A stretch of DNA of 49,797 nucleotides, from NCBI RefSeq assembly GCF_004010195.1, contig NC_057751.1, positions 17,895,768-17,945,564 of the forward strand, read 5' to 3'. This document shows, piece after piece, positions 1 through 31,916 of this stretch. A program made the translations under genes and the position numbers. Numbering within the stretch: position 1 is the first letter of the stretch; every line of letters begins with the position of its first letter. The notes beneath the pieces are model-generated. The model did no database searches and was not told the origin of the DNA. It saw only the letters and a list, made by a program, of their open reading frames with translations. Source of the DNA: Chiloscyllium plagiosum. Lineage: Eukaryota.

Positions 1-2330
1 CGAGTGGCGCATAACCTACCACGTGGGAGGTGAGTTGTTTAGGAGTGAGGAAAACGCAACCTAAAATACAAAGAAAAACATGTTTACTGGCCCGGACTGC
101 ACAAGGAAGTAGTTGAATTTTGCCAGGCGTGCCATATATATAATTGGAAAAGCACAAGCAGGAGTAAAACTTGCACCTTTAATAATTATTCCTCTAATTA
201 ATTAAACTTTTGCAAGAGTCTCAATTGATTGTGTAGGTCCACTACGATAAACATAAAGTGGTGATCACTATTTGTTAACAACAATGTGAGTAGCGACGAG
301 ATTTTCAGAGGCCATTATGTAATATCACAGAAGAAAAGATTGCAGAGGAATTACTCAAATGTTTTCACTAGATATAGAGGACCTACACGGGTGCAATCAG
401 ATCAATAGTCAAAAGTTCGCATCAAAATTATTCAAGGAATTTCTGGACAGCTTAGCAATGAAACAATTAAAATTAACTGTGCACCATTCAGAATTTCAGG
501 GAACGTTAGAAATGTGACATCAGTGTTTATAAGCTATGTTTAGGGCTTATAGTCAAGACTACCCATATGATTGGGATAAAGAAATTTCATTTGTGTTTTT
601 TTGCGATCAGAGATCACCAAAGAATCGATCAAATTCAGTCTATTTGAATTAGATTTTTCCCGTCATGAATTGAGAGGACCATTAAAATTGATTAAGGAGA
701 AATTACTAAGTCAGAATTCAGAGATCATATTTTTAGAAAATGTGTCAACTTTAGCGAACGATTAAAACAGCTGGGGAGTTGGCTAGAGAACGTTGAAAGT
801 ATCACAGCATACAACGAAACAGGAAACAGACCAGAAATTAAAGGTTCACAATTTTGTTATCCAGGACAAGGTATTACATTCTGTGATAGGTGCACATTCA
901 AAAGCAAGGTTTAGTGGATTTTATCAAGTCCAAAGGAAATTGAATGAATTCAACTACTTGATTGTGGCTGCAGACAAATAAAGAAATCGCAGAGTGTGTC
1001 ATGCGTATATGCTGGAAAGGTATTTTGACAGGGGTAAAAAGCAAGAGGATAATGCGTTGTTGATTGCTACACAGAGGGAACGACAAAGTTCATAAGATTC
1101 TGAATTGGAGATTCCGCCAATTAAATTGGACAATCAGGGAGTTATCCTTAAAGGCACATGTTCAAATGGAGATTGAACACACTCTGAGACGAAATACAAA
1201 GTGAGTTACAATGACTAGAACTCACCCATAATAATTGTACCAAACCCAGATATTACCCAACGGTGATGTGTGAATTATGGCAAGGTTAATGCAGTTTCAA
1301 ACACTGATGTATTTCTGATTTTGACGTTGGAAGACTGTGTTGAGAAGTTAGGCCAAGCAACTTATATTTCTAAGTTGGACTTGTTCAGGGGATACTGGAA
1401 AATACCTTCGACAGACATTGAAAAAAGCAATTTCGTAATGTCGAATGGACTGTATCAGTTTAAAGTAATACCATTTGGCATGGAAAATTCGCCAATTCAG
1501 TGACTAACTAAGAAGGCCATTACCATTTAACCAACTGCGTGGCATGTACCAATGACCTGGTGATTATTAGTCACACACGAAGGGAAAGTTTACAACATTT
1601 ATCAGGCTTGTTCGATTGACTTCACAAGGCAGGCTTGGTGATAAACCTGGGTAAAAGTACATTTATGAAGTCCAAGTCACCTTCCTGGGCCATGTTATTG
1701 GACATGGATAAATAGCCCACGGGTTGCAAAAATAAATGTAATTGGGGCGATTTCCATACCCTCAATGAACGATCAGTAATACGGTTCGTGGGATTGACTT
1801 GATATTATCAAACACTTGTCCCAAATTTAAGCAGCATGGCTGCTGCATTCGCTGGGCAGCGAATTGTCAGAAGACATTTGACAGCGTGATAGCTGTGTTA
1901 ACAATTTCCACAGTATTAGCCACACCTAATACTGTGGAAATTCAACGCCATTCAAGATGGCTATCGATTCAAGTGATGTGCGTGTTGGTGTTATGCTTTT
2001 GCAACAAAATGTCGAGAAGGTAGAAATACCTATTGGGTATTTCTCCAGGAAGTTGAAAGTTCATCAGTATAAATATTCGACAGTGGAGAAGGAGACTTTT
2101 GGGCTTGGTGTTGGCATTTCAATATTTCAGTGTTTATGTTACCAGCAAGGTCTCTGAGACAATCGTATACCCGTATCAAAAGCGATTGCAGTTTGTGAAT
2201 ATACTTAAGGACAGAAACGCCAAACTGTTTAAACGTAGCTTGTTGTTACAGCCATTCAATTTTAAAATTGTGCACGTGACAGGTTGATAAAACGTGATTC
2301 CCGACGCACTGTCGAGATTCGAATGAGGAG
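1..2330 (+). mobile_element. Decayed Gmr1-type Ty3/gypsy LTR retrotransposon pol region (integrase, then RT, then RNase H); 5' part lies outside the window
   Basis: Frameshifted remnants: integrase (YWPGLHKEVVEFCQACH, IDCVGPL, RFSEAI) at about 1-1050; RT (SPIIIVPKPD, LEDCVEKLGQATYISKLDLFRGYW, GLYQFKVIPFGM) at about 1200-1750; RNase H (AIDSSDVRVG, PIGYFSRKL, YSTVEKE, NVIPDALSR) at about 1950-2325. Confidence 0.9.
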
Positions 2331-2509
2331 GGTACGTGTTTGGTGGCCGGAATCCAACAGACTGAAATGGAATGTGGTTGTGCATGTTTGCACGTTTAGT
2401 GTCAGTGCAATGTATATGTGCCATTCAGAGGCCTAAAGATATTTTAGGCGTTTTAAAACGAAGCCATCTTTAATTATTGATGGCTCATTTTCATCTTAAA
2501 GGTGAAAGA

Positions 2510-3107
2510 TCTGATGATGCTCCTTCTTTAACGAGGTTATGCTTTTTTTTAAAAAAAAGAGTTCGTAAATGATACAGTCTCTGCAAATTCTGGGCTAGAG
2601 AGTTTTAGGGTCTATTTGATAATAGCTAACAGATACTGCATCAGGCAGAGGTTCTAAAGTAAAAAAAAACACTTGTGCAATGAAAGATTCTGGCCCGTTC
2701 TCTGTTTTTTTTTAAAGCACTAATTGGAACAAAAAAGCTGCTGGACCCATAGAAGCAAGGCCAGGCTGGCAATCTCACTGACTTCTGTCCTGCAACAGCA
2801 ACTTGTTTTTGATTTCAATTTGTTTTGCCAAGGGGTGTTTATGGGGACTATTGCAAGTATTTTGAACAGCATCATTAAGTTGAGATGACTTTTTCAGTTT
2901 TCGGGAGGTTACATTAGTCGATTTCCTCTTCACTGTGCTTTGTGTTTCGTTCAGTAATGTTGTAAATAAATTCTGCGTTTGTTTCACACTGAGTGGTTTC
3001 TTCAGCTGATTCCTTCCTGCAATATCTAATTTACGCCTGCTGAAAACGAAGTTATGGTGAGGGCTACCTTCTGAAATGTTTTGAGGAGTCAAGCCATGCC
3101 CATAACA
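2510..3107 (+). mobile_element. 3' LTR of the first Gmr1-type element
   Basis: Follows the pol end and a purine-rich tract (aaaggtgaaaga), and ends CATAACA. Its 3' end is similar to the reverse complement of the LTR at 24548-25200. Confidence 0.7.
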
Positions 3108-3177
3108 CACTAATCCATGATCATTTGGAATCTCATCGTAGGCTCTAACTGCCAAACAGTCTACTCTTGGTTCTAAA

Positions 3178-4130
3178 TAGAAACATATAAGAAAGGAGCT
3201 GGAGGAGTCCATTGGGTCCTTAGAGCCTGCTCCATCATTCATCGTGATTCTCGGATTCATTAGCCTAATGCTGCTTTCACCCCATAATCTTTTTATCCCA
3301 ATGGCATCAGGTTATACATCTTGCTGCCTCATGAATACATTCAGTATTTTGTCATGAGGTTCTTCCTGAGGTAATAAATTCCACAGACTCACCACTCTTC
3401 CATTGAGGAAATGTCTCCTCATGTCCATGCTACGTGGTCCAAACTGAATTTACAGACTGTGAACCCTGTTTCTGGACGCACCGGTCGTCGGGGTCAACTA
3501 CCTTGTTTACTCCTGTAAATATGTTCTTGTCTCTATGAGATCTACCCTCACTTGTCCGACATCCAGCGAAAACAATTTAACCTCAGACGTCATTCACGCC
3601 ATCCCTGGAATCAACTTGGGTCACGTATGCTGCACTCCCTGGAGACCAACAGCTTCCTTCCGCAGAATAGTGGACAAAATCTGCACAAAATATTCTAAGT
3701 GTGACCGCACCCGGGCCCTGTATAATTGCAACAACGCATCCCTGCTCCTTAGTGGAACCGCCACACAATTAAGGCCAATATGCGATTTGCCTTTTTTACT
3801 GCTCGCTGCATCGGTGTGCTTACCTTCCGTGATGGTGCCCAAGGATTCCCAGTTCCCGATGTACATACGGGTCTCCCAATTCATAACCTTTCAGGATCAG
3901 GAATATGCCATTTATCTCTATGAAGCCTGCCACACCGATCATTGTGATCATGATTGATCACCTGCCTCAACGTCATGTTCGCACTTTCTTTCCATGCCGA
4001 TTGATACCTTAAATATTTAAAAGGAGAACAACCTCTTCTGTGAGCATATTCAGCGTTTTCTTGTTTTTGCTTTCAAAGTGAATAACCTCGTATTTATCCA
4101 AATTACATTGCACCTGCTGATCTTGTTGTC
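3178..4130 (-). mobile_element. CR1 LINE 3' fragment(s), degenerate
   Basis: Minus-strand translation LLQLYRARVRSHLEYFVQI is the CR1 RT C-terminal motif; CR1-type 3' UTR near 3178-3300. Confidence 0.8.
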
Positions 4131-4139
4131 CTATGCGCT

Positions 4140-5040
4140 GATTTTATTTTCACTACTCATTATGGAGACTGGAGTTCAAATTGTTGCATGCCCTTATTGC
4201 AATTTCTGTCTCATGTACTAGGACATTGTTCAGGATGAAAAATGGCCAATCTCTCAGACTCTTTCTAATCACTCTGTCTCTCCCTGGGATAAAGGCACTC
4301 CACTCTCCCATGACTTCTCAGAGGACAGTTGGAACACAGTTACTTGTGCGGAAAAATAGTATTCATCATTTCTACAAACTGGGCCTTGACTGAGACAGCA
4401 GATTGGAAAAAAAATAAGTTTCCCAAACTACTACATGACGCCAAATATTTTTACCTCACCTAAAATGTGACTGTCGTGGGAGAATTTCTTCAGGAGCGTG
4501 TTTTTCTAGTGACGCCATCAAATACATTCTCTGGGGCTCGTATCCCTTTACCAAGTCACACGTTATTTTTAGGTGGAGAATATTAACATTGATCCAGCTC
4601 TCAGAGTGGACAGGATTAGATTAGATTACAGTGTGGAAACAGGCCCTTCGGCCCAACAAGTCCGCACCGACCCGCCGAAGCGAAACCCACCCATACCCCT
4701 ACATTTACCCCTTACCTGACACTACGGGCAATTTAGTATGGCCAATTCACCTGACCCTGCACATCTTTGGACTGTGGGAGGAAACCGGAGCACCCGGAGG
4801 AAACCCACGCAGACACGGGGAGAACGTGCAAACTCCACACAGTCAGTCGCCTGAGGCGGGAATTGAACCCGGGTCTCTGGCGCTGTGAGGCAGTAGAGCT
4901 AACCACTGTGCCACCGTGCCGTTGACAACCCTGTTCGTAACTGTTAGACAGGGCTCCCTGATTCGATTAAGTAACTAACCAAAAACAGGAAATTCATATT
5001 CTACAAGGACCAACTGGCTGACCTCGTTGCAATCACTTAT
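4140..5040 (-). mobile_element. Decayed gypsy-type LTR (about 4518-5040) with PBS-like TGGCGTC and a gag-start remnant; LTR interrupted by a SINE
   Basis: Minus strand reads gtgattgcaacgaggtcagccag...agaatatga...cagggagccctg, then TGGCGTC, then a degenerate FGKL...AQFVE...YFFR gag-like start. Confidence 0.5.
4614..4921 (-). mobile_element. HE1-type tRNA-derived V-SINE, young full-length copy
   Basis: tRNA-like head (ggcacggtggcacagtggttag...ggttcaattcc), V-domain (tgtggagtttgcacgttctccccgtgtctgcgtgggtttcc) and (taatc)n tail. Confidence 0.93.
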
Positions 5041-6925: not shown

Positions 6926-8123
6926 CTACTGCATCTCAACTAACTGCAATTCTTCAGATTTGAACTCCATCGCTGTATACATCTCTTTAAACCCAGTCAA
7001 ACATACAGCCTCAAATATCTCCATCCTCTTCCAAATCTTCACATATTTCCATATAGGAAGCTGATGTAGATGCAACGGCTTTTTAAACTGTGCTTCCTTT
7101 ATGTAGTATTCCTTCTGCATTGTTGGGGGTAGAAATGTGAAATAAAAACAAAACCTGCGATAAAAACTGTGTAGATCAAGAAACATCGTGGAGTGAGACA
7201 CAGAGGTAGCAATTCGGCCTCAGCACATCCAAGGGTAACGAGAAATCAAATGGTTCGTCAGTCGAATGAAAGTACTGGACTTCGAAGCAGACAAACGATT
7301 CAAATGATGCACGAATGAAAAAATATGATCATTGTAATTTTATTACAAATCGATACAAAGGTTACAGTGGAGCGAGGAAAATTTTAAAGTCAAGAAAAGG
7401 CATGCTCAGAAATGGTTACTTTGTAAAACCTTATATGAAAGATTGTTTGAAAATGATCATGAGACAAAACGCCTGATCACTGTCCAGGGAATCCTGCATT
7501 TGAGATTGGGGAAAGGGAAATCAGCCTGGGTCTTCGTCAGATCACTGTCCATCGATGACTGAGTTAGAAAAAAAGCTTTCAAATCTGCCAGACTTTAGTT
7601 TCTGATCACTAATCTGAGATTCCCTGGTTCGAGAAAATGAGGAAATGAACCAGAATTCGTGATTATGATCATTATCTACGATACCTGGATTAGAGAGAGA
7701 GAGAGAGAGAGAGAGCAGAGAAATCAGCAATGCATTTGGTCCTGATGTCTGTTCAATAATTCCTCGTTATTGACAGAGGCAGGGGAATTCGTTATGTATA
7801 ATCGATGGGCTGAATGACCTATTTCTACTCCTCAATTTAATGGTGTACAGCTTCTATGGCGTTCACACAAAAACGGTTTTAAGGAGGGAGACGGTGGCCT
7901 GCAGTTTGGAATGCATTGATTGAGTGAGGGTACTGTTAGGGAATTTTGAAGACGGAGTCGGATCAGTATCCGATCTTGAAGGATGCACAGGGTTGGGGGT
8001 GAATTGACTAACTGTGTTGTGGCAAGGGGACAGAATAAGCATGAGGGTCTAATGGCCTCTTCCTCAGCTGACACAATGGTCCTCAATTCTGATCAAACTG
8101 TCTCTCTGCTCCTCCCGCTATAA

Positions 8124-8217
8124 TTCAGTGCTGTGTTTGCCGAGAAACCGATGCCTTTTATTCCGATTCGCTGTCTCTAGCAGGCTAACCATGCATCACA
8201 TGCTGCCAGGAACTGGG
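8124..8217 (+). pseudogene. UNC93B1: UNC93B1 pseudo-exon (exon 6 equivalent, 94 bp)
   Basis: FSAVFAEKPMPFIPIRCL*QANHASHAARNW(G) aligns ungapped to LSFACAQLPMIYFLNHYLYDLNHTLYNVQSC(G). It ends in phase 1 at GTAGG; the acceptor reads AA instead of AG. Confidence 0.7.
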
Positions 8218-8269
8218 GTAGGAGACCTCAGCTGAAAGAGAGCATCAGAATTGTAAATGTCTCAACACA

Positions 8270-8495
8270 GGTCTCAGAGAGAAAGCGAGTGAGAGTGAGA
8301 GAGAGAGAGACAGACAGAGAGACAAACAGAGACAGAGAAGTAAATAGACTCCAACACTTACTGGGAACATCACACACAAAGACAGAGAGAGAGACAGGCA
8401 GAGAGTCTTCAACACACACTCGTTGTGTCACACATAAAGACACAGAGAGACACAGAATGAGAGAGAGATAAATGAGTACAGACACACTCGCATCT
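8270..8495. repeat. GA/GACA-rich low-complexity tract (a similar tract lies at about 9945-10110)
   Basis: Direct reading; the two tracts flank a CR1 insertion. Confidence 0.85.
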
Positions 8496-8499
8496 GGAG

Positions 8500-9945
8500 T
8501 CACAGATTATCAAGTCAAACAACTTGGAAAACCATCGTTTGGTCTAACGCATTCGCGCTGGTCTGTTATCCTATCATATCTAGCTCCATTTGCCAGCATT
8601 TGGCCCATATCCTCTAAACCCTTCTCATTCATGTGTCTATCCAGATGCCTTTTAGACGTTGGAATTGTAATCATATCGAGCACTACCTCTGGCAGCTTGG
8701 TTCATATACGCACCACCGACTACTTGAACGAGTTACCCCTCAGGTCTTTTATCAAACCTTTCCCGATTCACTTAAATCTTGTTACCCATCTGATTAGATT
8801 TTAGAGGAAACAGGCCCTTCGGCCCAACAAGTCCACACCGCCCCGCCGAAGCACAACCCACCCATACCCCTACATTTACCCCTCACCTAACACTACGAGC
8901 AATTTAGCATGACCAATTCACCTAACCTGCACATCTTTGGACTGTGGGAGCACCCGGAGGAAACCCACGCAGACACGGGGAGAACGTGCAAACTCCACAC
9001 AGTCAGTCGCCTGAGGCAGGAATTGAACCCGGGTCTCTGGCGCTGTGAGGCAGCAGTGCTAACCACTGTGCCACCGTGCAGCCTGAAAAGCACAGTGGAT
9101 TAAACAGATTACACAGCTGTTCCCTGCAACCCAAACATTATAGTCCTCAAAAACATCATTGTAAATATTTTCTGCCCACTTCCAAATTAAACAGCATTTT
9201 TTTCTCTGGAGCAGACACTTGAATTGTAAGTGACATCACCAATGTCCTGTGCATCTGCAGAATGACTTCACAACCCCTATACTCAATGCACTGACCAATG
9301 ATAGCGAGTCGACCAAACACCACCTTCACCACCATGTGTGCCTGTTACACGAATTTGAAGGAACTTTGGACGTGAACCCCTCGCTCTTTTTGTTTTGGCA
9401 TCACTGCCCGGGGCCTACCATTAACTGGATTTGTCATGCCCCTGCTTTGTCTTTTCAAAATGTAACTCTTCACATTTATCATAATTAAACTCATCTGCCA
9501 CTCCTTGGCTCATTTTCCTATTAGATCAAATTCTCGTTGTTTTTTCGAGATGATAATCTTCATCCCATACTACAACACCGATTTTAGTGTCATCTACAGA
9601 TTTACTAATCACGCCTGTAATATTCGCTTTGAAGTCATTTACATAAAACTCGAAAATCAGTGGATCCAGCACTGATCCTTGTAGCACACCCCGGTCACAG
9701 ACCTCCAATGCAAAAAGCAATGCTCTGCCACCACACTCTGTCTCCTACCTTCAAGCCAATTTTAGATACACATGGCTACCTCACCAGGACAACATATGTT
9801 TAAACTTGCTAACCAGTCTAAAATGTGAAATCCTGTCTCTCACCTTGCTAAAGGTCATATAAACAACATCTCCTGCTCTGCCTTGATCTATTTTCTTTGC
9901 CAACACTTACAAATCCTAAATCAAGTTAGTAAGACGATTGTTCAC
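8500..9945 (-). mobile_element. CR1 LINE RT/3' fragment(s) with a nested SINE
   Basis: GVLQGSVLDPLIFEFYVND and SKSVDDTKIG motifs; CR1 3' UTR near 8500-8790. Confidence 0.85.
8790..9079 (-). mobile_element. HE1-type V-SINE
   Basis: Close similarity to 4614-4921, with a short internal deletion. Confidence 0.92.
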
Positions 9946-10235
9946 GCGCAGAGAAAAAAAAACGCACAAGGAGAGCAAGAGCGTTAGGGAGAGAGAGAGA
10001 GACAGAATGAAAGAGAGAGAGAGTCGGAAGAAAACAGGTAGAGACATTGCGTGAGCAGCGGGCACACAAAGAAGTGCACAGACAGTCGGAGACACAGAGA
10101 TAGGCATGACAAGTGTGGGTGAAGGTGAGTGGACGTGGGAGATGAGGGTGGCGTGGCATTTTCATGTTCCTTTGTTAGAAGCATAGAGTGAAAGTGAATG
10201 CTGTGTTTTTTTTTTAGCGTTTATTTTAGTGGCAG

Positions 10236-10356
10236 GCACTGACATAAAGATTACTAACCAGATCGAGGGTCTGAACAAGACTCTGTTGATGAAGATTCCT
10301 CACGGCATCAGACTCATTGTGATTGAGATTGCCCTTATACTTCGCCATGGTACACG
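10236..10356 (+). pseudogene. UNC93B1: UNC93B1 pseudo-exon (exon 7 equivalent)
   Basis: After CAG: (G)TDIKITNQIEGLNKTLLMKIPHGIRLIVIEIALI/FAM versus GTNSHGILSGFNKTVLRTLPRSGNLIVVESVLMAVAFLAM. The phase-1 start fits the previous exon. Confidence 0.8.
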
Positions 10357-11002
10357 GTACATGTATGGAAGCTGAGGATATGCAAGTAGATTGACGGCAC
10401 AGAGAAAGACAGAGAAAGATGGTGTTTGTGAAGAACTGAGGTGGATTTAGAGATGGGGTGTGTGAGGCTGTTGCAAACGTTAAAGATCACTTATGGAACT
10501 GAGATCATAACATAATAAATCTATCATTCAGTTTGAGAGTGAGGAACCTGGTCAAAAACACTTGTGTTAAACTTAAATACAGGTAATCATATAGGAATGG
10601 GGGCAAAACTGGCTTGGTGGACTGGTATCTAGATTTGGCAGAAAATGAAGTTGAAAAACATTCTCATACAGTTAAGGGAACAGATCATGGCTTACGATGA
10701 AGATACATTTCAATGAGGAAATTGTGATTCCAGTGATTTGATAAGCGAACCACCCTTGACCAGGGGAGTTAAGGACACTTCAGAGTAAAAGAAGAAAATT
10801 GCATTCTTGAAAAAATAATGGTAAACCAGAGGACTGGGCAAGTTTTGGAAACGTACAATGGATAACCGAACACAATAAACAAGTGAGCGAGGTGTTGAGG
10901 CTCAGCTCGGGAGTAATATTAAAATTGAGTGCAAAGACTTCTTTAACGTGTAAAGGATAATGGAGGTCAAAGTTAATATAGGCCCTTAAAGAATAAGCCG
11001 GG

Positions 11003-11031
11003 TTGGGGGGGGGGGGGGGGGGGCGTGGGGG
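11003..11031 (+). repeat. Poly-G run (G-quadruplex-prone)
   Basis: About 19 consecutive G followed by cgtggggg. Confidence 0.8.
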
Positions 11032-11964
11032 CTGAGGCTGCATGTTGTGGGGAAAGACAGGAAATGGCAGAGAAGTTCAATAAATGCATTACATCAGTCT
11101 CAGAAGTTACTGACAGTATTCCAAAGTTACCAAATATTCAAAAAGGAGAGGAAGTAAGTATAACGACAATCATGACAGAAGAAGTTATAATAGAAACTAA
11201 TGGTGTTAAAGAACAATAAAACTCCGAGGAATGATGAATGCTTACATATTTAAACGAAGTAACAACGGAGATTGCAGTTGCACTGGTAGTTATCCTCCAG
11301 GAGTCCTTAGGTTCTGGAAATGTCCCAGACGTTTGCAAAACTGTTAAATTCAACCTTTACTGAAGGAGAAAAAAAACTGACATGTAACTGTCGATCAATC
11401 TGATTCATAGATATTATATGATAAGCGTTAGTCCATTCTAAATGACGTGTTAGCAGATCTTTTCGGTATACGCACTGGGTTCAAACAGAGATAACATGCT
11501 TTCATGAAGGGGAAATCTATGCCTGACAAACGTCGAATTCTTTTGAATGAGTAGTTTCCAGAACAGATAAAAGGGAAGCACTGGATGTAGTACATTGAAG
11601 TTTTCAGTATGAGTTTTGACAAGGTTCTTCATGGTAGGCTTCATTCGGAGAGCCACAGTGTTGGAGAGGATAAATTAGCATAGAAAGCATTGAATTAGCG
11701 AATGAGTAGAGGGAAAACAAAGGGATTGGGTGATAGTTTTTGGATCACAACCTGTAACCAGTGGTGTGCCTTAGGAATCAGCAATGGGGCCATTATTATT
11801 TACAACATATCAGAATGACTTGGATAAGGAAAGCAAATGCATAATAGGCGCGTCTGCGAACAATACCAATCTAGATGGGAAGCCATATCGTGAGGATTAT
11901 GCAAAAGTCTGCAGAGAGACAGGAACAGGTTGGGCAAAAGAGATTTAACACATGCTAGATTTGC

Positions 11965-12520
11965 TTTTTACTCATCCACAAAATAAAGGTGTTGCTGGTT
12001 AGGCCAGCATTAATGGAACATCTGTAATTGCCCAGAGGGCACTTAAGAGTCATCAACATTCCAGTGTGGCTATAGGCACATATACTGAAAATGTGTTGCT
12101 GGAACAGCGCAGCAGATCAGGCAGCATCCAGGGAACAGGATGAAGAAGGGCTTGTGCCCGAAACGTCGATTCTTCTGTTCCCTGGATGCTGCCTGACCTG
12201 CTGCGCTGTTCCAGCAACACATTTTCAGCTCTGATCTCCAGCATCTGCAGACCTCACTTTCTCCTATAGATACGTATATGTAAACTCATGTAAACGTGGC
12301 TTTTTCCCTCCTTAAAGGGCATTAGCAAATGAGATTTATCCTTTGATAATGGATAATGGATTTGTAATCATCATTGGATCATTTTTTTCCATATTTTCCA
12401 GTCAAATTCCACTATCTGCTGTGGAAAGAGTCAAATCCAAGTCAACAAAAAGTTAACTGTGTGTCTAGGTTAACAGACCAACGAGAACACCACTGGCCAT
12501 CATTCCCCAAATGTAGCATA
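11965..12520 (-). mobile_element. Second-family tRNA-derived SINE sharing its 3' tail with the LINE at 37325-38040
   Basis: The reverse complement ends gggcaatta...aatgctggcctaaccagcaacacc; the head region reads cagatagtggaatttga. Confidence 0.65.
12085..12264 (+). mobile_element. Penelope-derived hairpin element with a hammerhead-ribozyme core, flanked by a TATA duplication
   Basis: 54-bp inverted arms (12085-12138 and 12175-12228, one mismatch). The loop contains TGAAGA-A-GGGC-TTGT-GCCC-GAAACGTC. TATA lies at 12081-12084 and 12265-12268. Confidence 0.8.
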
Positions 12521-13509
12521 TTCTGAGAAAATGCGATGTTGTACACTTTAGTCGAATGAACAAGGGATCTGTATTTTTTTCCAGTGCATAAAGCGATATG
12601 AGGACCCTTTGCTTGGTGAAGCACAGAAAATTAACATTGAGGTTCAGTGGGTAACTGCAAAGACAAATGGAATGCTGATAATTATTTCAGAGATAATGGA
12701 TTATAAAATGAGGGACGTTTTTCTAAAATTGTAGAAGGCACAAGTCAAGCTGGAGTTGCAATATTGTCCACAGGTTTTGGCCGCTTATCCACTTTAAAGG
12801 AAAGATAAAGTGGAATTGGACGCAGACCAGAAAATATTCACTCAAATGAATGCTTGTGCAAGTTCCAGTATCGTGAATTGATGTTGGGCGTGCAATTGGA
12901 GGGAAAGACTCAGGAAAGCGTGTGATAAAGCGCAGAGCAGCAGGATTAGAATTCAATGACATAAGGATGGTGTGAGCTGGAAAAGGACTGAAATGAGATG
13001 TCACATGGCACACGAAGCATGAGAAAGAATGGGTGAGGTTGTGAGAGAATAGGATTAACTAATTGTTAACACTGAACGAAGTCCCTCTTGCTCTCTCTTT
13101 TTTCACGAGCTCAGTTGCCCCTCAGCTCTTTACCACTGACATCACTGATCCCACTGATTTTCTGCTTATGGTCCTTAAACTCAACCCTTTCATTCTACCC
13201 TCAACGCCAGTTCCCTCTCGGTCTGCCTATGACCCCTCACTCTCTGCCTCCAGATCAGAGGTCCTGAACCCTTCATACCAGCATGCACTCTCCAGCCCTA
13301 AACCCCGACTTTCAGCATTCATTCTCCCTGGCATTTACCCCAACCCCTCTCTCTGGTCTGACTCCTCACTTTCAGTCTCTGAGTACTTGATCACAGATGT
13401 TAACCCTTGACTGCCCTCTCCCCTGTCTGAAGAAATTGAAGGAGCTGTTCGGCAGGAATCATGGGGCGTGTTCTCTCCCCTCCCCCGCACCCTCTTTCGT
13501 TTCTGGTGT

Positions 13510-13690
13510 TTGTTCACTCTCTGAGGCCCGATCTACTGATCCATCGAGGAAACGACCTTCACAGCACCGTCTGGGGCAATATCTTCCAGCTGCCCTTCAG
13601 ACACATGTAAGACTACCACCTCTGCCTGCTGCTGCCCTTCTTCATCTACAATAGTTTTGAGGTGCTCTTCACTGCATAGGCTTCAGCCTC
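13510..13690 (+). pseudogene. UNC93B1: UNC93B1 pseudo-exon (exon 8 equivalent)
   Basis: LFTL*GPIY*SIEE/DLHSTVWGNIFQLPFRHM*DYHLCLLLPFFIYNSFEVLF/CIGFSL versus VLGLCGAAYRPTEEIDLRSVGWGNIFQLPFKHVRDYRLRHLVPFFIYSGFEVLFACTGIAL. Confidence 0.93.
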
Positions 13691-13779
13691 TTTTTGGGGG
13701 GATTGTTCTTCATTTTTCCGCTCGGATACATAGATCTCCTTATGAGGAGCTGGGAAAGATGGGGTAGTACTCTATGCTT

Positions 13780-14220
13780 TTGTTCGTTCTCTCTTTTTGT
13801 CTTTCTCTTTCTCTTACTCTCACCCTGCCTGCGTCGCTCTTTATTTCACTTTCTGCTTCTCGCTGTCTCTCTCACTGATCCTCTCACTCATTTCGTATCT
13901 GCCTTCCTCTCTGTTTCTTTTTACCTTGTTTCTTTCTTTCTCACTCTCTTTCTCTCTTCCCATCATTCTCTCTTTCTGTTTCCCTCTCTGTTTCTATCTC
14001 TGTCTCTCTATCTCTTTCTTTCTTTGTCTCTGTCTGTGCCTCCCTCTCTCTGCCTCTCTCCCCGTCTCTCTCTCACCTTTTCTATTGTCTACTTCTCAGT
14101 TTCGTTATTTCTCTCTCTATTTCTGTCTCTTTCTCTCTTTTGCTCTGTCTCCTTTCTTTTTCTTTCTCTCTTTGTGTTTCACTCTCTCTCTTTTTCTCCA
14201 CCTCATTCTTTCTCTCTGCA
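13780..14220. repeat. CT-rich polypyrimidine low-complexity tract (intron 8 of the pseudogene)
   Basis: Direct reading. Confidence 0.9.
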
Positions 14221-14293
14221 GGCATTGGGCTCCTTCTGTCGCCCTATCCCTGAATGGTTTCTCTCTAAACTGCATCTGTTTCGAATTTCTCAG

Positions 14294-14569
14294 TTGTACA
14301 GTACTTTTTCGCAAGGGCTGTTACTTCTTGGTGGTATAACTATCGATTATGGAATTTCGGCATCAGTCCTTGCTGCCATCACTCACCATGCTGTGTGTTG
14401 CACGCTCGGTGCCCCTGGTGAGGGACGCTTCTGTCGAGCCAGGTTAATTATGACGCACTTCTACTGGACCACTAACCCAATGGAATGCCTGACTGCCAGC
14501 CTGCTGGAGTCGACGCTGTGGTTGTGCTGTTGGGACTCGACCTGGCCCTGAACAAGACCAGTCTCGCCA
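14294..14569 (+). pseudogene. UNC93B1: UNC93B1 pseudo-exon (exon 9 equivalent)
   Basis: After ttctcAG: LYSTFSQGLLLLGGITIDYGISASV/LTMLCVARSVPLV/LIMTHFYWTTNP/AVVVLLGLDLALNKTSLA versus GYGVCSVGLERLAYLLVAYSLGASA...RPVPLV...FFWAPVP...ALWGVGSALNKTGLS. The donor reads TTGAGT. Confidence 0.85.
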
Positions 14570-14931
14570 TTGAGTACATAGCGGATGGGAGAGAAAGGGG
14601 ATAGTATGGCAACAGACTGGGAGAGGGGCGATGGGGGCAAGAGGATCTGCGGAAATCTTTGGAAATCCGAGGCTAATGGCGAGGTGGGGAATGGAAGAAT
14701 TGGTTGCGGTAGAGACTAGATTTGGGGTGCTGAAAAAGGGAGAGGTGGGGTGCAGGAATGAGGAATTGTGTGGATACGGGTTGAGGAAAAATGTGGGGAC
14801 GGGAGCGTGAAGGCTAAAATAGGGTGTTGGAGAAAACTTTATCCATTCCTGTGTGTGTGTGTCTCTGTGTATGTTTAACAGTGATTCGCTTTACTACTCT
14901 ACCCTCACCCCCTAATCACACTATCCTCCAG

Positions 14932-15035
14932 CTCTCTTTGGAACATTATTGGGGACAAAGAAAGACAGGACTTCATCTTCTCTATCTTCCATCGCAATAT
15001 TCGGAGTGTACCTCTGGTCAGGAGATCACATGAAG
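14932..15035 (+). pseudogene. UNC93B1: UNC93B1 pseudo-exon (exon 10 equivalent)
   Basis: After ctccAG: LFGTLL/DKERQDFIFSIFH/AIFGVYLWSGDHMK versus LLGILYEDKERQDFIFTIYHWWQAVAIFTVYLGSSLHMK. The donor reads TTGAGT. Confidence 0.93.
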
Positions 15036-15194
15036 TTGAGTGTGTCCATCAACCATTAATGTGAGGTCATTGAAGGAGGGTATAAACCTCAAGTTGTACT
15101 TCCCAAAGGCTGGCATGACAGTTAGTCCTTGTGCTACCAGGCTGTTCATATTGAGGGTTTCAGAGCTTTCAAAGAAGTCTGTGTGAACAACTGT

Positions 15195-16035
15195 CTCGGG
15201 GACAGTGCAGCCAAAGCTTTACCCTGCATCTAACCTCGTGCTGTTTTGCCTTGGGATTGTTTGATGCAGACAGTGTAGACAAAGTTTTCAACTGTTTCTA
15301 ACGTCGAGCTTTCAAATTCCTGGGAGCGGTTGATCTGGACAGTGTCGAAGGAGGTTTGCATTCAGTGTAACTTTTAGTTCCAAAGAATAGAACCACCACT
15401 GGTATCCCCAAGCTATCTATCAATGCTGAGAGTGACTGAAATGACACAGTAGAGAGGGCTTTACTCTATCTAACCTGTTGCTGTCCCTATCCTGGGAGTG
15501 CTTGATTGAGACAATGGCGAGGATATTATTGCTTGGCTTAACAGAATGAATAAAGATCGACATTTTACCTTATAACATAATGTCCCTCTTCTGGGAATTC
15601 TATATTGGAACAGTTTTCAAGAAGGTTCACGATGAATCTGACCTCAAGCAATCCCTCTGTGATTGATGAGGACACTGCTGAAGGGGCTTGACTTGCCGTT
15701 TGAATGAGTAGGCAAAGCTTTTTCCTGTATCTAACCCGCTGCTGTGCTAAATCTGGGAATGGTCGTTGGAGACAGTTTCAAAGAAGTGCTAGTTCCAACT
15801 TGCTTTCAGTATAGAAGATCAGATAGAATTTTCGTTTGTTGCTAACTCTATGCTGTCCCAGCTCTGGGAGTACTTGATGGGAACAGTCTTGGGGGAAGTT
15901 TATGAGAGAGGCAGCTCGAATTTCTGGTTAAAAAGTAGAGAGATATTTCATCTCTACTTAACGCAGAGTTACTCTTGTTCTCGGAGTGTTTTCAGGGGAC
16001 AGCATCGAGGGAGTATTGCTCTGGAACTAAACCCA
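15195..16035 (+). repeat. Degenerate tandem repeat of about 65-70 bp in pseudogene intron 10
   Basis: Recurring unit approximating ggacagtgtagagggagctttactctgtatctaacc...tgctgtccct...ctgggagtgtttgat. Confidence 0.75.
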
Positions 16036-16054
16036 ATCACGGTGACATCCCCAG

Positions 16055-16320
16055 GTGAATTTGCTGGTGCTGCGTGACTCTGGCCATTGCCGTCACTTCC
16101 AACCTTTACACTGGGAGCAAGCTGGACGGTGGGTCCCTTTCCATGTGCCGTATGTCTCCACACCCCAGCATGAGGCTATCACGACCTGGAGGATTAGAAT
16201 TCTTAGCAGACCGATGAGGAAGCTGAGATGCAGAGCAACCCCATTGAATCGGAAGTGGATCTGGAGACTCTGGACGCACACGTTTAGCAGTCTGCCAACC
16301 CCGATGTCGCTGATCAGTAA
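16055..16320 (+). pseudogene. UNC93B1: UNC93B1 pseudo-exon (exon 11 equivalent, last coding exon)
   Basis: After cccAG: VNLLVL/VTLAIAVTSNLYTGSKL/WVPFHVPYVSTPQHE/GYHDLED*NS*QTDEEAE versus AKLAVLLVTLVAAAVSYLRMEQKL...PRIPRPQHKVRGYRYLEEDNSDESD. Confidence 0.85.
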
Positions 16321-16559
16321 GACTGAGTGACATTGGCCTTTCGCCCATCACAAACTACTGAACCACATGCTCAATGATTCAATTTTCTTGTGCCAGCTGC
16401 TTAAAACTGTGTCATTCCGAAGTTGTGTACTTCCCTCGCTAAAACTATTCATATGACCTCCCATCTACGCTCACGTCCCCTCCCCTCAACTCCTCAAAGC
16501 CTCCCCAGTCGATCTTGAATTTCACTTTCCACAGTTGACATAGCAGAATTCCATGGAAA

Positions 16560-17125
16560 TGTCGAATCATCGAGCCTTCGAAAAGGACAGAATTGAAACC
16601 GATCATTCAATCCAAATCATCCACACCGACCAGTAATACAAAGTAATTTTAGTCCCATTTGCTAGTATTTGGCCCATATCCCTCTATACCCTTCCTATTC
16701 ATATATCCATTAGGTGCCTTTGAAATGTCGGAATTGTACCAGCTTCTTCCACTTCGTCTGGCAGTTTATTCCACATACAACCCATTCACTGAATTAAAAA
16801 CAGTTGTCTTTTGGCTCCTTTTTAAATCTTTCCTCTCTCAAGTTTACACCTCGACCCTTTGGTTTTGGACTCACCTACGCTGGAATAAAAAAATGTCAAT
16901 ATCCGCAATATTCATGCGTCTCTTGATTGTATAAATTTCTGCAAGGTCATGCCTCAGCCTTTGTTGTTCCAGAGGAAATAGTCCCAGCGAATTGAGCTTC
17001 TACTGATAACTCAAAAACTCTAACTTAGCAAAGTCCATGCACCGCTTGTCTGGACCATTCAAGTTTCACAACATCTTTCTTAAAGCTGAGAGACCAGAAT
17101 TCAATATAATGTTACAAAAGTGGCA
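16560..17125 (-). mobile_element. CR1 LINE 3' fragment
   Basis: Reverse CR1 3' UTR and a degenerate FPLEQQRLRHDL motif. Confidence 0.75.
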
Positions 17126-22020: not shown

Positions 22021-22241
22021 CCAAATAATACTGAAATTCGTAGCTTAAGCAGGCTGTGAGTGACAATGTTAAATTTATTTTTGCAAAGCACTTTAACCCA
22101 ACATGTTGGCCACATATTGAAGTGCACGTCTTCTTGTAATAAGTTTGATCAGAGCTTATGGAAGCCATTAGTTTCTTTTATTCTAACTGTACAATCAGTT
22201 TGATGCAGATTGGATGTTTTCAATGCAGGAAGAATCCACAA

Positions 22242-22657
22242 NNNNNNNNNNNNNNNNNNNNNNNNNNNNNNNNNNNNNNNNNNNNNNNNNNNNNNNNNNN
22301 NNNNNNNNNNNNNNNNNNNNNNNNNNNNNNNNNNNNNNNNNNNNNNNNNNNNNNNNNNNNNNNNNNNNNNNNNNNNNNNNNNNNNNNNNNNNNNNNNNNN
22401 NNNNNNNNNNNNNNNNNNNNNNNNNNNNNNNNNNNNNNNNNNNNNNNNNNNNNNNNNNNNNNNNNNNNNNNNNNNNNNNNNNNNNNNNNNNNNNNNNNNN
22501 NNNNNNNNNNNNNNNNNNNNNNNNNNNNNNNNNNNNNNNNNNNNNNNNNNNNNNNNNNNNNNNNNNNNNNNNNNNNNNNNNNNNNNNNNNNNNNNNNNNN
22601 NNNNNNNNNNNNNNNNNNNNNNNNNNNNNNNNNNNNNNNNNNNNNNNNNNNNNNNNN
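22242..22657. other. Assembly gap (416 N)
   Basis: Run of N. Confidence 1.
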
Positions 22658-22882
22658 TGGAGTTTGCACGTTCTCCCCGTGTCTGCGTGGGTTTCCTTCG
22701 GGTACTCCAGTTTCCTCCCACAGTCCAAAAATGTGCAGGTCAGGTGAATTGGCCATGCTAAATTGCCTGTAGTGTTAGGTGAAGGGGTAAATGTAGGGGA
22801 ATGGGTGGGTTGTGCTTCGGCGGGTCGGTGTGGACTTGTTGGGCCGAAGGGCCTCTTTCCACATTGTAAGTAATCTAATCTA
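22658..22882 (+). mobile_element. HE1-type V-SINE, young; 5' part lies in the gap
   Basis: V-domain and (taatc)n tail. Confidence 0.92.
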
Positions 22883-24547
22883 ATTAGTTTCTTTTATTCT
22901 AACTGTACAATCAGTTTGATGCAGATTGGATGTTTCAATGCAGGAAAAATCCACAAGCAGGAGTCGTAATATTTGGATGAAGGGTAAACCTTAGGATAAA
23001 AATAAGGAATAATTTCTTCATCCAGAGATTTGTGAACCTCTGGGTTTCACGCTGACATGTGTGATTGAGGGAAAAAAAAGTGTGTTTTTAAGAAGGAGAA
23101 AGGTATAGCTCCTGTTGCTAAAGGGATCAAAGAACAACGGGGAGAGTATTGAGCTGCATAATTGTAAGGGTGTTTAAATGCCATTTCCTGTTCCTATCCT
23201 CTAATTTTGTTTGTTTCACCAAAGTGCCGCCATCGTACAGCAAAGAAAGTGGAGAAGAAAGCAGGAAGATATGGGCAACTTTGGTACATTTTCTGGCATC
23301 AAGAAAAGTGCTTCAACCGATGAGAAATTAGCTACATGCCTTTTATGAAAACATAATGCGTTCGATATAGTGAAGTGAATGGGGAATCTGGTTCTCACGT
23401 AAATTTGAAAAGGTCATAAATAGGTTTGATAAATGTGATCAAGCGATGAAGTGAACATATATTTCCAAACAAAAATTGCACGATCATCTGCCATGTAAAA
23501 TGTTGCTGCTCAAGTTAAGAATTTGTGGAGTTGCTGATATTTTATCAGCATGGACAGAGGTTTGATTTTAAAAAAAGAAGAAAGTTAAAAGAAATAGTTG
23601 AATCTTGGGTTGTCTAAATGCAGCCACTGAGTTTTAACGGATATTTTCCTAGTATATTTCCCACTCAAAATATTCTTATAAGCTTATTTTTTCCATTTGT
23701 TATCCCATTATGCTTATACATTTGGAATTTAAAAGAGGTATGATTCACGCCACAGAGAGGTAGGTGGATTTATTAATATCTGAGTTAACATTAATATGTG
23801 TATGTATGCCATTGTGATTGCAGCAAACCATAAACCACGTGGAAATGTTGAATATTGGTGATGCTTTAAAATTAATTTTGCATGTGTTTATTATGCAGCA
23901 TGGGATTTCACATAACAGCCATAACAGCAAGACTTATCCTCCCCGCATTCGAGCATTTTAAGGGAAGAACGACAAAATAACACAGAGATCATCAAGTTCT
24001 GATCTGGCATCGATGATTCATCAGGCCCCAATGCACCCCATTACCAATTTCATTAAATTGAAAATAATCTTCGAAGGAATGGAGAACTCAGCTTCAGATA
24101 AGTTGAGCAATTGGATGTGGATCACCAGATAACAGGACTGGTTGTTCCATTGGTGGAAATAGTTAACTAATTAACGAAAACAGAGAGAAGAACGTGGCGC
24201 TCGAAATGTGATACAGCAAGAACTGCTGGATGCATCTGTTCCATCTATCTTTTGTTTTGTTTTCTGTTCCCTTTTACTTTTGGTATTTTCTTTGCATTTT
24301 GTGGCACCTTCGGTGGGGATTCAGTGAGAGTTGGAGACAAGTGGCAGTAACGGCATGTTCCAAGGTTTGGCAGCAACAACATCGAGGAGCAAGTTCAGAG
24401 TGCCAACAGAAGCAAGTTGCCAGAGCCTTCCACAGCGAGTTGCGACAGATTGCAGTGACAGTAGCGCTGATGCTCGAAGCATTGCGAATACAGATAAATT
24501 ACGTTATTCAGCTCGGACGTTTCGATCTGGCCCCTTCCCCTTTCTTC

Positions 24548-25200: not shown

Positions 25201-25675
25201 GACTACAGACGGGAGGTGGAAGACCTGCAAAAATGGTGCACCGAGAACAACCTAGTTCTCAATGCCGGCAAAACCAAAATATTCATTATTGACTTTTGGT
25301 GGATATTACTCATGTGCCACTACACATTAAGAGCACAGACGTGGAAAAAGAGGAGAATGTCAATTTCCTGGGAGTGGTCATCCACAACAAACTTTCTTGG
25401 GCTCTTCATGTGCGTGTACTGATTACAAAAGCCCAACAACATCTCTTCTTCCTTCGGAAGCAGAGGAAATTCGGCATGACGGCGAATACCGTTGACAATT
25501 TTTATAGAAGAGCCGTCGAGAGCAGTCTGTCTCATCGTATCACTACCTGGTATGGAAACTGTACCATTCAGGATCGGAAACGGTTACAGATAGTAGTGAT
25601 AGGACAAAGGGTGGAAAAGTATTGGCTAATTAGCCTAACCTCGTTTGTAGGTAAAATTCTAGAATCTATTGTTAA

Positions 25676-26015
25676 GGGTGGCATGATGGCTCTGTGGTTA
25701 ACATTGCTGTCTCACAGCGCTAGGGACCGAGGTTCAATTCCAGCCTTGCACGACTGTCTGCGTGGAGTTTGCACATTCTCCCTGCGTCTGTGTGGGTTTC
25801 ATCCAGTGCTCCGGTTTCCCCCACAATCCAAAGATGTGCAGGTTAGGTGAATTGGACATGCTAAATTGCCCATAGTGTTCATGAATGTGTAGGTTAGTGC
25901 ATTAGTCAGATGTAAATATAGAGTAGGAGAATGGGACTGGGTAGGTTACTCTTCGGAGGGTCATGTGGACTTGTTGGGCTGAAAGGCCTGTTTCCACACT
26001 GTAGGGATTATATGA
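25676..26015 (+). mobile_element. HE1-type V-SINE
   Basis: Head, V-domain and 3' end are recognisable. Confidence 0.9.
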
Positions 26016-26477: not shown

Positions 26478-28559
26478 ATTCTTGGAAGCGCAGGGTGAGA
26501 TTAGAATAAGTCAGCATGGATTTAGTAAGTGGAGGTTGTGGGTGACAAACTTGTTAAAATTCATTGAAGATGTAGCAAGTAGGTTAGACCAGGGAAACCC
26601 AGTCGATGTTATCTATCTAGAATTACAATATTCCTTTGATATGGTGCCTCACAGGAGGCTGCTGTGTAAGGTGAGGTCCCATGTTGTTCGAGGTGAGCTA
26701 CTGGCATGGATTGAGGATTAGCTGTCTGACAGAAGGCAGAGAGTTGCCATAAAGGTTCTTTTTCGGAATGGCAGTTCGTGCCAAGTGGCATACCGCAGGG
26801 TTCTGTGTTGAGCCCGCAGCTGCCCACTTTATATGTTAATGATCTGAATGAAGGGACTGAGGGCATTCTGTCGAATTTCGCTGATCGTATGATATTAGGT
26901 GGACAGTCAGGTAGTTCTGAGGAGGTGGGGAGACTGCAGAAAGATTTAGACAGTTTAGGAGAGTGGTCCAGGAAATGGCTGGTGAAATTCAACGTGAGAA
27001 ATGTTACGAATTGCACTTTGGAAAAAAAGAATACAGGCATGGATTATTTTCTAAACGGTGAGAAAATTCGTAAAGCCAAAGTGCAAAGCAATCTGGGAGT
27101 GCTAGTCCAGGATTCTCTGAAGGTTGGCTTGCAGGTTGAATACGTGGATTAGAAGGCAAATACAATGTTGTCATTTATGTCAAGAGGGTAAAAATATAAA
27201 AACAGCAATGGGCTATTGAGACTTTATAAATCTCCAGCTCGGCCCCATTTTTAATACTGTGTCCAATTTTGAGCCATACACAGGAAGTACATACTGGCAC
27301 TGGAGCGTGTCCAGTAGAGATTCACACAGATGATCCCTGTAATGGTCGATCTAACATAGGATGAACGTCAGAGGATCCTGGAACTGTATTCATTACAGTT
27401 TAGATGGTTGAAGGGAGATCGAATATAAACGTACAAGATAATGCATGGCTCAGAAAGGGTGGACGCTGGGAATTTGTTTATGTTACGTGAGGAGACTGAG
27501 ACCCGTGGTCACTGCCTTAGAATTAGAGGAGGTCAATTTAGAACGGAAAACTTGTGACATTTCTTCAGCCAGAGGATGATGGGCCTGTGGAATACATTGC
27601 CACGAATTGCAATGGAGGTCAGGATGTTAAATGTCTTCAAGGCAAAGATTGGTAAGTTCTAAATCTCGCCAGGCATGAAGTGCTGTGGGGATAGTGCGGT
27701 CAAGTGGAATTGTAATGCCCATCCGTCATGATTAAATGGCAGGATGGAGTCGATGGATCGAATGGCCTTACTTACACCCCTCTCTCTTATGGTCTTATGG
27801 GACTTGGGCCCGGACAATCACAAAGACCAACCTCCCATCTATAGTATCCACTTACCAGGCCCGCTGTACAGAGGAGGCCGCCAACATTCTCAATGATCCA
27901 CCCCACCCTGGCATTGTTTTTCTACAACCTCTGCCATCGGGGAGAAAATACATAAGCCTGAACACACGCATCAAACAGTTTCTAAACAGTTTCTACCCGA
28001 CTGCTGTTAGAATAGTGAATAGGCTCACAAACTCTGAACATTGGCCTGTATCTGTGTTTTTGTTTTTGCCGTTGTTTACCCATTATTCACTTATCTATGC
28101 TACTTAGATCTTTGATCTGCCTATATTGATCGCAAGATAAAGCTTTTCACTGTGCCTCGGTACACATGAAAGTAAATTCAATTCATTTCATTTCATTTCA
28201 ATTCAACTTAATTCAATTCAATTCAATTCAATGCAATTCAATTCAATTCAATTCAATTCAAATCAACTTTCAGAGATGGTTCACCAGGAGTAAAAAGAGT
28301 AGGACAGCCCGAATAGTCGAAAATATCTCATATCTCCATACTACCAGAAGTACTGCTCACCACTGCATTTTCATTGGCTGACCACTTCGGCTTAATGCAA
28401 ATGACCAGACTATAATGATGATTTTAGGAATGAAAAATGAAATCAGTGATGTAAGTTCTAATGGGTCATCAGTATGGGTGACATTAATTCGCATATAGAT
28501 TCGGAGAATAAAACGAATCACAATCTTTTTTAAAAAAGTTATCCCTGGTGTGCGTACTG

Positions 28560-29190
28560 GATAATTTTCCTGTACAAATACAAAGAGCAGAAATCTCAGA
28601 ATAGATCCCTGTGGAACATCAGTGGATACCGAGTTCCTGGCTGAACACGTTCCATTTACTGTCAATATATGTCTTTTCTGGGCCAGCCAATTCTGTATCC
28701 AGACAGCCACATTTTCCTGTGTCCTATACGCACTTACTTCTGAATGAGTGGAAATTATCGAACATCTTCCTAAAATCCATGTAAACCGCCTCTATTGCTC
28801 TATCATCGTCAGTGTGTTTTGTCACATCCTCAAATAATTCAAGAAGACGTTTGAGGAATGCCCTGCCCCTCACAAAACCATGCTGACTATCTATAATCAA
28901 GTTATGATTTTCAAAATAATCATATATCCCGTCTGTTCAAATACACTCATAATTTGTCCAGTGCTGACGTAAGAGCGATTGGTCTATAATTCCCTTGGTT
29001 ATACCTATTCCCTTTCTTCAACAATGAAATAAAGTTTGCAACCCCGCAACCATTTGACTCTACTCCAGTGGAGGGAGAGGATGCAAAGATCATCGCCAAT
29101 GACGCAACAATCTCTTTTGTCATTTCCGTTATAACATTAGGCATGTCATGTCTGGCTTTGGGGACTTACCGACCTCATGTATTCCAAACG
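28560..29190 (-). mobile_element. CR1 RT fragment
   Basis: GNYRPIALTS and DVPQGSILR motifs. Confidence 0.85.
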
Positions 29191-29363
29191 TTCCACTGCG
29201 TCCTTCTTTTCAAAGTCAATGTGTTCGAGCGTGTGTTGCAGAGCATATTCGAGAAAAGACCACCTTCATCTTTCCAAACGTTCCACTGCATCCTCCTTTT
29301 CAAAGTCAATGTGTTCGAGCGTGTGTTGCAGAGCATATTCGAGAAAAGACCACCTTCATCTTT
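29182..29363. repeat. Tandem duplication, 2 x 90 bp
   Basis: Units start at 29182 and 29272 and differ by two substitutions. Confidence 0.95.
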
Positions 29364-30256: not shown

Positions 30257-31529
30257 CCTACCCCCTGACTTTCCATAACAAAAAACAACATAATGAAAAC
30301 ATGGTTTCATTTTTTTCTACTTCTTAATCCCATTACCATGAAATACATGCGTCATTAAGGTCAGGTATACCTTTCATATTAAATTCTGCACACAGGCATA
30401 ACATCAAATCAGTCAATCCAATCGGAATGTTTTTTCGTTTAAACCTGTAATAACGTATCTGCTATCACATTTCTACGTGAAGCAACATGTGCAATTTGCA
30501 ATTTAAGGAAATGAAAATGTATGACGATAAGATTCCAAAGAATTATTGTCTTAATTTCGTCTCCAAATCGTTCCAAGAATGTGAGCGAATTGTGAATTGG
30601 GTATGCAACCGTTTCTGACAGTTCGTTCCTCACATAAACAATCAAATGTTGTAAGGCAGTAACAAACTCAGTAACTCTTTTTCGATGGCAGAGTGTTTTA
30701 TCTGGTGTGTGACGAGTTTTTTGAACAGTAGAAAAATGGCCGTTCAATTCCATTATCACCTTCCTGTTGCAGTACAGCTTCAATCCCGAGAATTGCTTGC
30801 AACTTTGAAGGATTTCAAAAACAAGATGGTGTCGCTAAAGCTGGTACGCTGGTTACAAGTACGCTTAAATTCTCAAGTACTTCAGGTCATTGTTCCATGC
30901 ACTGAAATTTTGTGTTCTTCCTCAGTAAATCTGGTAAAAGTTTCACCACATTGCTGAGGTTGGGAACAAACTGCCAGGAGAATCGGCTTAGTCCAAACAT
31001 GGAAGGAAATCTTTCGTCGAGGATAGTTGTGGAAATTCATTGATTGACTTCGTTTTGACGTTTCTTGGGGTCATCTTTCCATTACTGATGTTATGCCCAA
31101 AGAGGGTCTGATCGAACTTCGCACATTACTTTGTCTTTAATTTTAGTATGAGTTTGGCTTCGCATAATCTTTGAAAAACGTCTACTAACTAATAGTTCCA
31201 TGACTCTGTAAAGATCAATACATCATCCAGATAAACTGCACAATTTGTGAATCGTGCCACAACTCTGTTCATGTTATTCGATTATTCTTCATTCCAAAGG
31301 TCATCACATTCAAATGGTATTGCCAATTTGCTGTTACAAGCTTAGAATATTCTTTCACTTTCTCTGATGAGTGTACCCGCCAATAACCGCGCAAGAAGTC
31401 CAACATTGTGACGTAAGTGGATTGTTCAACTTTCTCGAAACAGTCCTCCAATTTTGAAATTGAGTATGGGTCTGATTTTGTTGCAGCGTTGACCTTCCTT
31501 TAGTTTACAGACAATCATCGAGAGCTGTA

Positions 31530-31916
31530 CATAGAACATAGAACATAGAAGAATACAGCGCAGTACAGACCCTTCGGCCCTCGATCTTGCGCCGATCCAA
31601 GCCCACCTAACCTACACTAGCCCACTATCCTCCATATGCCTATCCAATGCCCGCTTAAATACCCATAATGAGGGAGAGTCCACCACTGCAACTGGCAGGG
31701 CATTCCATGAACTCACGACTCGCTAAGTAAAGAACCTGCCCCTAACATCTGTCCTGTACCTACCCCCCTTAATTTAAAGCTATGCCCCCTTGTAATAGCT
31801 GACTCCATACGTGCAAAAAGATTCTCACTGTCAACCCTATCTAAACCCCGAAGCATCTTGTACACCTCTATCAAGTCACCCCTAAACCTTTTTTTCTCCA
31901 GTGAAATCAACCCCAA
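31530..31916 (-). mobile_element. Young 5'-truncated CR1 inserted in the gypsy RT
   Basis: GLISLEKKRFRGDLIEVYKMLRGLDRVD and a (ttctatg)n tail. Confidence 0.92.

Follow-up and report, generated by a model that had tools for sequence, protein, structure and literature searches.

Six exon remnants of UNC93B1 in a shark genome

The stretch analysed here, 49.8 kb of Chiloscyllium plagiosum DNA on contig NC_057751.1 (the window in what follows), contains the remnants of the last six exons of UNC93B1, the gene for a protein that a passage of PMC10510315 places in the trafficking of endosomal Toll-like receptors (TLRs). The remnants stand in gene order on the plus strand, are separated by five retained introns and are broken by stops, frameshifts and lost splice sites (Table 1). 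We conclude that the locus is very probably an unprocessed duplicate pseudogene of UNC93B1 with a live parent elsewhere in the genome. An earlier note on this DNA, made from the sequence, had proposed such a duplicate; in its favour are the retained introns, the nearest protein, which is the UNC93B1 of an orectolobiform shark, and a transcript with the same species label that is spliced and looks intact.

The six segments are present at the coordinates that had been proposed for them, and their translations contain the peptides WGNIFQLPFRH, ALNKTSL and DKERQDFIF that had been singled out as diagnostic. Together they match residues 231-590 of the whale-shark (Rhincodon) protein P0154, named UNC93B1 by NCBI/UniRef and carrying the Pfam family UNC-93 (PF05978), with 198 of 336 aligned residues identical. 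A search of the PDB with the exon-8 piece (13524-13676) matched two sequences of 177,635, namely chain 7c76_B, 'Protein unc-93 homolog B1' (E 3.9e-13), and a second solved chain (E 7.3e-12). The exon numbers 6 to 11 used throughout follow the human gene, which we take to have 11 exons.

For a frameshift-aware scan of the whole window, P0154 was cut into 11 exon-sized peptides, and the minus strand and the reversed or complemented sequence served as controls. The last six peptides gave best plus-strand scores of 56, 89, 182, 175, 104 and 157, each at its proposed segment and in gene order, compared with 30-45 for the controls, so that a collinear alignment of all six segments to UNC93B1 is established. 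The reference protein was reached from the exon-8 piece through a representative library, in which 32 sequences were hit: 31 strong matches, all readable ones UNC93B1-type by sequence, and a repeat protein (E 6e-4). From these the shark-like fragment P0018 was chosen by eye for a new search. The 120 hits listed out of 530 included at least six UNC93B1 proteins of named cartilaginous fishes (Carcharodon, Mustelus, Rhincodon, Narcine, Mobula and Pristis). When the 51-residue exon-8 piece was used in a homolog search, four candidates came up, none significant, and a bird-protein query found birds, turtles and one unnamed record, with no shark among the 120 listed of 557 matches.

Lesions and neutral decay

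The stops, frameshifts and deletions ascribed to the remnants in the earlier note are borne out. We counted seven premature stops and 11-12 frame-breaking insertions or deletions, the lower count applying if two in exon 7 (sum -10) are a single event. Splice sites are non-canonical at 5 of 11 positions, the acceptors at 8124 and 13510 and the donors after 13690, 14569 and 15035. An open frame with canonical splicing, as a functional UNC93B1 would have, is thus absent on all three counts of stops, indels and splice sites.

The substitutions point the same way. Of the 119 covered sites whose residues are invariant in 15 intact vertebrate proteins, 47 (39%) have changed; of the 217 other aligned sites, 91 (42%) have done so. 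As invariant residues have not been spared, the copy appears to have drifted neutrally since about its birth, a judgement made from counts of invariant and variable residues rather than from a true ratio of nonsynonymous to synonymous substitution rates (dN/dS). At least 57 replacement changes over 281 sites, or ~20%, separate the copy from the intact protein. Six of the eight invariant arginines are changed, losses that would fit the prediction of CpG decay.

Two details of the lesions may be recorded here. The donors of exon 9 (14570-14575) and exon 10 (15036-15041) both read TTGAGT, the +1 G-to-T variant of the consensus GTGAGT, and the exon-8 donor reads TTTTTG; the identical change in exons 9 and 10 is probably a matter of chance. 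The 14-nt deletion in exon 10 (14988-14993) lies, as judged by eye, between two short CAT-containing near-repeats of the parent, an arrangement as in microhomology-mediated deletion.

A spliced transcript of an intact-looking UNC93B1

Four public sequencing runs (X1, X13, X17 and X19) were aligned to positions 14230-16550 at 80% likeness. X19 is classed as RNA by a software guess, with support from the splice junction described below, and bears the same species label as X1, the best DNA match to the window. One X19 contig fits the window only at 14953-14987 and extends at least 255 letters on both sides, 95 letters of it being visible. In the 30 letters before the match, the last bases of exon 9 run straight into exon 10, and the base that the window copy lacks near 14953 is present; the 30 letters after the match contain the 14 bases deleted near 14993. 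The translation reads LATLLGMLYE, then the shared DKERQDFIFSI, then YHWWQAIAIF, with flanks that by eye are those of P0154. The exon 9/10 boundary of the window copy coincides with the splice junction of X19.

This contig is the spliced message of an intact-looking orectolobiform UNC93B1 over the 95 letters that are visible. Since the donor of exon 9 in the window is TT, such a message cannot derive from the window locus. Nor is it a whale-shark sequence, because its next codon starts with G, whereas Met stands there in the whale shark (and Gly in the window copy). As to transcription of the window copy itself, none of the 14 aligned X19 contigs reaches a likeness of 99 or more. The single-cell RNA run X17 gave eight reads, all less than 90% alike and all on the intron-10 repeat, with none on an exon; about 2 in 100 of that run were read, which makes it uninformative. 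No RNA run is listed as containing the window stretch, which is evidence neither for nor against transcription.

Independent DNA evidence and a second decayed copy

X1 is DNA from the same organism. Four of its contigs cover 16078-16550 with 0-1 differences from the window, and the exon-11 lesions in that interval, to which this independent confirmation applies, are therefore not assembly errors. Across 8000-16800, 54-88% of sampled words are present in eight runs. At 16252-16373 there are two alternative X1 contigs, with one difference (depth 9) and six differences (depth 3); the divergent one is either a divergent allele or a further copy.

Three other X1 records, each overlapping the next by 30 letters, form a chain over intron 8, exon 9 and intron 9 (14232-14845), at 89%, 85% and 82% identity to the window. 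Their depth is 11.5-12, about the single-copy depth of ~10. Exon 9 of this second locus computes, from contig coordinates and on the assumption of no hidden gap, to 270 nt versus 280 for an intact exon, and the locus is polymorphic, one allele lacking a further base at 14558. We take this locus to be another UNC93B1 copy, collinear with the first, introns included, and likewise decayed. We also considered it as the parent and rejected this, as its introns are 82-89% like those of the window copy while replacement sites alone separate that copy by ~20% from the intact protein, and as it has a frame-breaking exon-9 length and differs from the X19 transcript at 14565.

X13 is DNA from a related organism, B. 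Its record 15 spans 15572-16529 with 94 substitutions and nine gap letters, that is, ~90% alike. The sole indel in exon 11 is +1 at 16125, and the frameshifts near 16073 and 16173, two of the three in this exon, are common to both organisms. Because organism B shares them, the pseudogene, or its sister, predates the split of the two lineages, and the common frameshifts offer a neutral marker for the lineage.

Origin from a carpet-shark gene

The window copy is closer to Rhincodon than to Carcharodon UNC93B1, whichever protein guides the alignment (60% versus 51% with Rhincodon as guide, 56% versus 53% with Carcharodon). The exon-11 remnant scores 163 against Rhincodon and 91 against Carcharodon, and its tail is specifically of the whale-shark kind. 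In trees of 16 sequences, built from vertebrate UNC93B1 with no UNC93A outgroup, the copy is sister to Rhincodon in four of four, with bootstrap values of 100/100 (Rhincodon guide) and 95/99 (Carcharodon guide) with and without the tail. This position indicates derivation from a carpet-shark UNC93B1 and not from an ancient genome duplication.

Table 1 Components of the UNC93B1 pseudogene, in window positions; residues are numbered as in P0154
Feature	Position	Strand	Description
Exon 6 remnant, residues 231-262	8124..8217	+	13/31 identical; acceptor AA, stop 8178, donor GT intact
Exon 7 remnant, residues 262-303	10236..10356	+	21/37 identical; AG and GT intact; in-frame 6-nt insertion; net -10 frameshift close to end
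Exon 8 remnant, residues 304-364	13510..13690	+	41/59 identical; both splice sites lost; stops 13522, 13537, 13608; two 1-nt deletions
Exon 9 remnant, residues 365-458	14294..14569	+	51/90 identical; frameshifts -2, -1, -1; donor TTGAGT
Exon 10 remnant, residues 458-497	14932..15035	+	27/33 identical; donor TTGAGT; 1-nt deletion near 14953; 14-nt deletion near 14993
Exon 11 (last) remnant, residues 498-590	16055..16320	+	runs to TAA at homologous end; frameshifts near 16073, 16126, 16173; stops 16195, 16204, 16285
Five retained introns	8218..16054	+	2018, 3153, 603, 362, 1019 nt
Dispersed repeat in intron 6	8806..9079	.	92-98% identical to copy at 4635-4919
Degenerate multi-copy repeat in intron 10	15166..15945	.	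attracts many unrelated contigs and all eight single-cell RNA reads

The repeat in intron 6 is presumably similar to a short interspersed element (SINE). Given its high identity to the other copy, it is younger than the decay of the pseudogene itself.

Alternative explanations

Several observations weigh against a duplicate with a live parent. The exon-6 remnant is the weakest of the six, its score of 56 standing modestly above chance on score alone when controls reach 45; in its favour are its length, precisely the 94 nt that residues 231-262 require, its GT donor and its location, which is the expected one. The reading frame of X19 is visible over 95 letters only, and its tie to the species of the window is a label. 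The exon-9 length at the second locus presupposes contigs without a hidden gap. No near-identical X1 contig was found for 14230-16077, in records whose filter omits some. The genomic contig of the parent is not among the 24 listed of 283 X1/X13 pieces, and exon 10 has zero depth in both runs. Finally, among the 120 hits listed out of 530, no cluster is headed by a protein named for a bamboo, epaulette or zebra shark; a five-member whale-shark cluster may include such proteins.

The last two points are also what one would see if the window held the dead orthologue and the shark, having lost UNC93B1, no longer trafficked its endosomal TLRs normally, a reading that the earlier note had coupled to consequences for nucleic-acid sensing. 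We regard such a loss as very improbable. A spliced transcript under the same species label has neither of the exon-10 frameshifts, which counters it directly. The orthologues are intact in all six named cartilaginous-fish proteins retrieved, and the whale shark retains TLR3, 7, 8 and 9 according to a part of PMC8455134, so that retention of UNC93B1 is the expected state. The window, moreover, is rich in transposons, a 7tm_1 receptor being the sole other cellular coding stretch found, and no conserved neighbour was recognised in its 49.8 kb, where a Pfam scan covered 4 of the 45 open reading frames of at least 100 amino acids. To blame the lesions on faulty assembly or sequencing of a real gene is close to untenable: the gap of N letters at 22242-22657 and the missing near-identical X1 contig could be cited for it, but it is refuted for exon 11 by the X1 match at 16078-16550, and the two frameshifts shared with a related species, the sampled words found in eight runs and a ~20% substitution at invariant sites, far above error rates, all run counter to it.

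How much of the gene was copied is a separate matter. The P0154 peptides of exons 1-5 scored 29-40 across the whole window, which is background, and the window begins 8.1 kb upstream of exon 6, so that these exons could precede base 1. An exon-5 candidate at 7664-7756, a weak tblastn match to bird proteins, was rejected, as it overlaps an AG repeat, has no shark-protein match and coincides with an exon-5 peptide at background; weak matches at 6375 and 21903 were rejected on the same grounds. Duplication of the 3′ part only is probable in our view, because the copy was already dead at the outset and has short introns. That the whole gene was duplicated, perhaps as a briefly functional second UNC93B1, with exons 1-5 now lying before base 1 beyond a transposon-swollen intron or deleted later, is somewhat unlikely. 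It is compatible with all the public-run alignments, and the 8.1 kb before exon 6 appear by eye to be largely mobile-element remnants, which would allow a long intron 5; the five retained introns, however, measure just 0.36-3.2 kb, and the equal decay of invariant and variable residues makes a long functional period hard to accommodate.

For a copy of the 3′ part, the most likely course of events is as follows. In an ancestral carpet shark, a duplication at the DNA level took in exons 6-11, at least, together with their introns; the retained introns do not fit a processed pseudogene (retrocopy). The copy was non-functional from about the start, probably for want of a promoter and 5′ exons. It decayed neutrally, took up repeats and was itself duplicated again to give the second decayed locus. 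No protein would be made from the window copy, and TLR trafficking would be served by the intact parent elsewhere, transcribed and spliced. The loss of the 5′ part at birth, the segmental mechanism and the full-length integrity of the parent are the parts of this account that we infer. We further entertain, as a rather doubtful extension, that a small, old duplicon family of carpet sharks, with at least two dead copies, is built around the 3′ part of UNC93B1. Equally speculative, and joined to it, is the idea that the locus has seeded pseudogenes independently in sharks and great apes and is maybe a recurrent donor in rearrangement-prone regions. If such a family exists, its copies could lead annotators to the false conclusion that the TLR chaperone has been lost.

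Surroundings of the pseudogene

Apart from the pseudogene, the window consists mostly of mobile-element debris, with an RVT_1 match at 26730-27149, an ALKBH8_N match at 25293-25847 and several dispersed repeats. The receptor mentioned above is a rhodopsin-family frame on the minus strand (40028-40993), open over 321 codons (Pfam 7tm_1, E 4.3e-14) and with a pyrimidine-rich acceptor close to 40900 at its start; no first exon turned up in 40850-41400. We take it to resemble the orphan G-protein-coupled receptors that are expanded in sharks.

Stretches resembling decayed long-terminal-repeat retrotransposons occupy 1-3200 and 30400-37000, with integrase, reverse transcriptase and RNase H-like parts by eye and no family match; the frame at 32353-32925 has no significant Pfam match. 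About 80 nt at 22160-22241, directly before the gap of N letters, recur at 22882-22960 after a SINE-like element that follows the gap, which suggests duplication during assembly or else a long repeat of the target site. Recent two-copy duplications are seen at 29182-29363 (90 nt, 97%), 34141-34446 (152 nt, 98%) and 42992-43215/45130-45353 (224 nt, 92%).

Comparison with known systems

In the literature searched, by titles and abstract openings, we found no study of shark UNC93B1 copies. The term 'UNC93' does not occur in the main text of either PMC8455134 or PMC4067322, whose supplements could list the gene, and passages of bioRxiv 10.64898/2025.12.03.692127 and PMC10510315 hold nothing on shark copies.

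Nucleic-acid sensing is not in question, as this shark appears to have retained a working UNC93B1 and to splice it, and the biological import of the locus is small. Had there been no parent, this would have been, to our knowledge, the first natural vertebrate UNC93B1 knockout, a reading that the X19 transcript removes. The practical use is a different one: catalogues of immune-gene loss in carpet sharks could mistake the locus for the orthologue.

Compared with whale-shark UNC93B1 (P0154), the window copy is collinear over residues 231-590, has the same exon phases and ends in an acidic tail of the whale-shark type. Unlike that protein and the human and mouse UNC93B1 (PDB 7c76/7c77), it has no counterpart of residues 1-230 in the window and cannot encode the transporter-fold chaperone. 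The closest parallel is found in great apes, where pseudo-UNC93B1 copies, in the account given in part of PMC3038909, are described as retroposed and border tumour break-prone segmental duplications dated to 12-16 million years at >95% identity. In both cases multi-copy dead UNC93B1 derivatives occur in a genome that also has a live parent, and both lie near expanded receptor genes, the 7E olfactory receptors in apes and one 7tm_1 gene 24 kb away in the shark. The shark copy differs from the ape copies as that account presents them in that its five introns are still present, its source was a carpet-shark gene, its sister is 82-89% alike and its origin is independent. The pseudogene is ordinary and unprocessed; what is new is the gene and the lineage, unreported in the literature searched. 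With its retained introns, lesions throughout, neutral decay and a live parent, it is like unprocessed pseudogenes in general, with no difference in kind.

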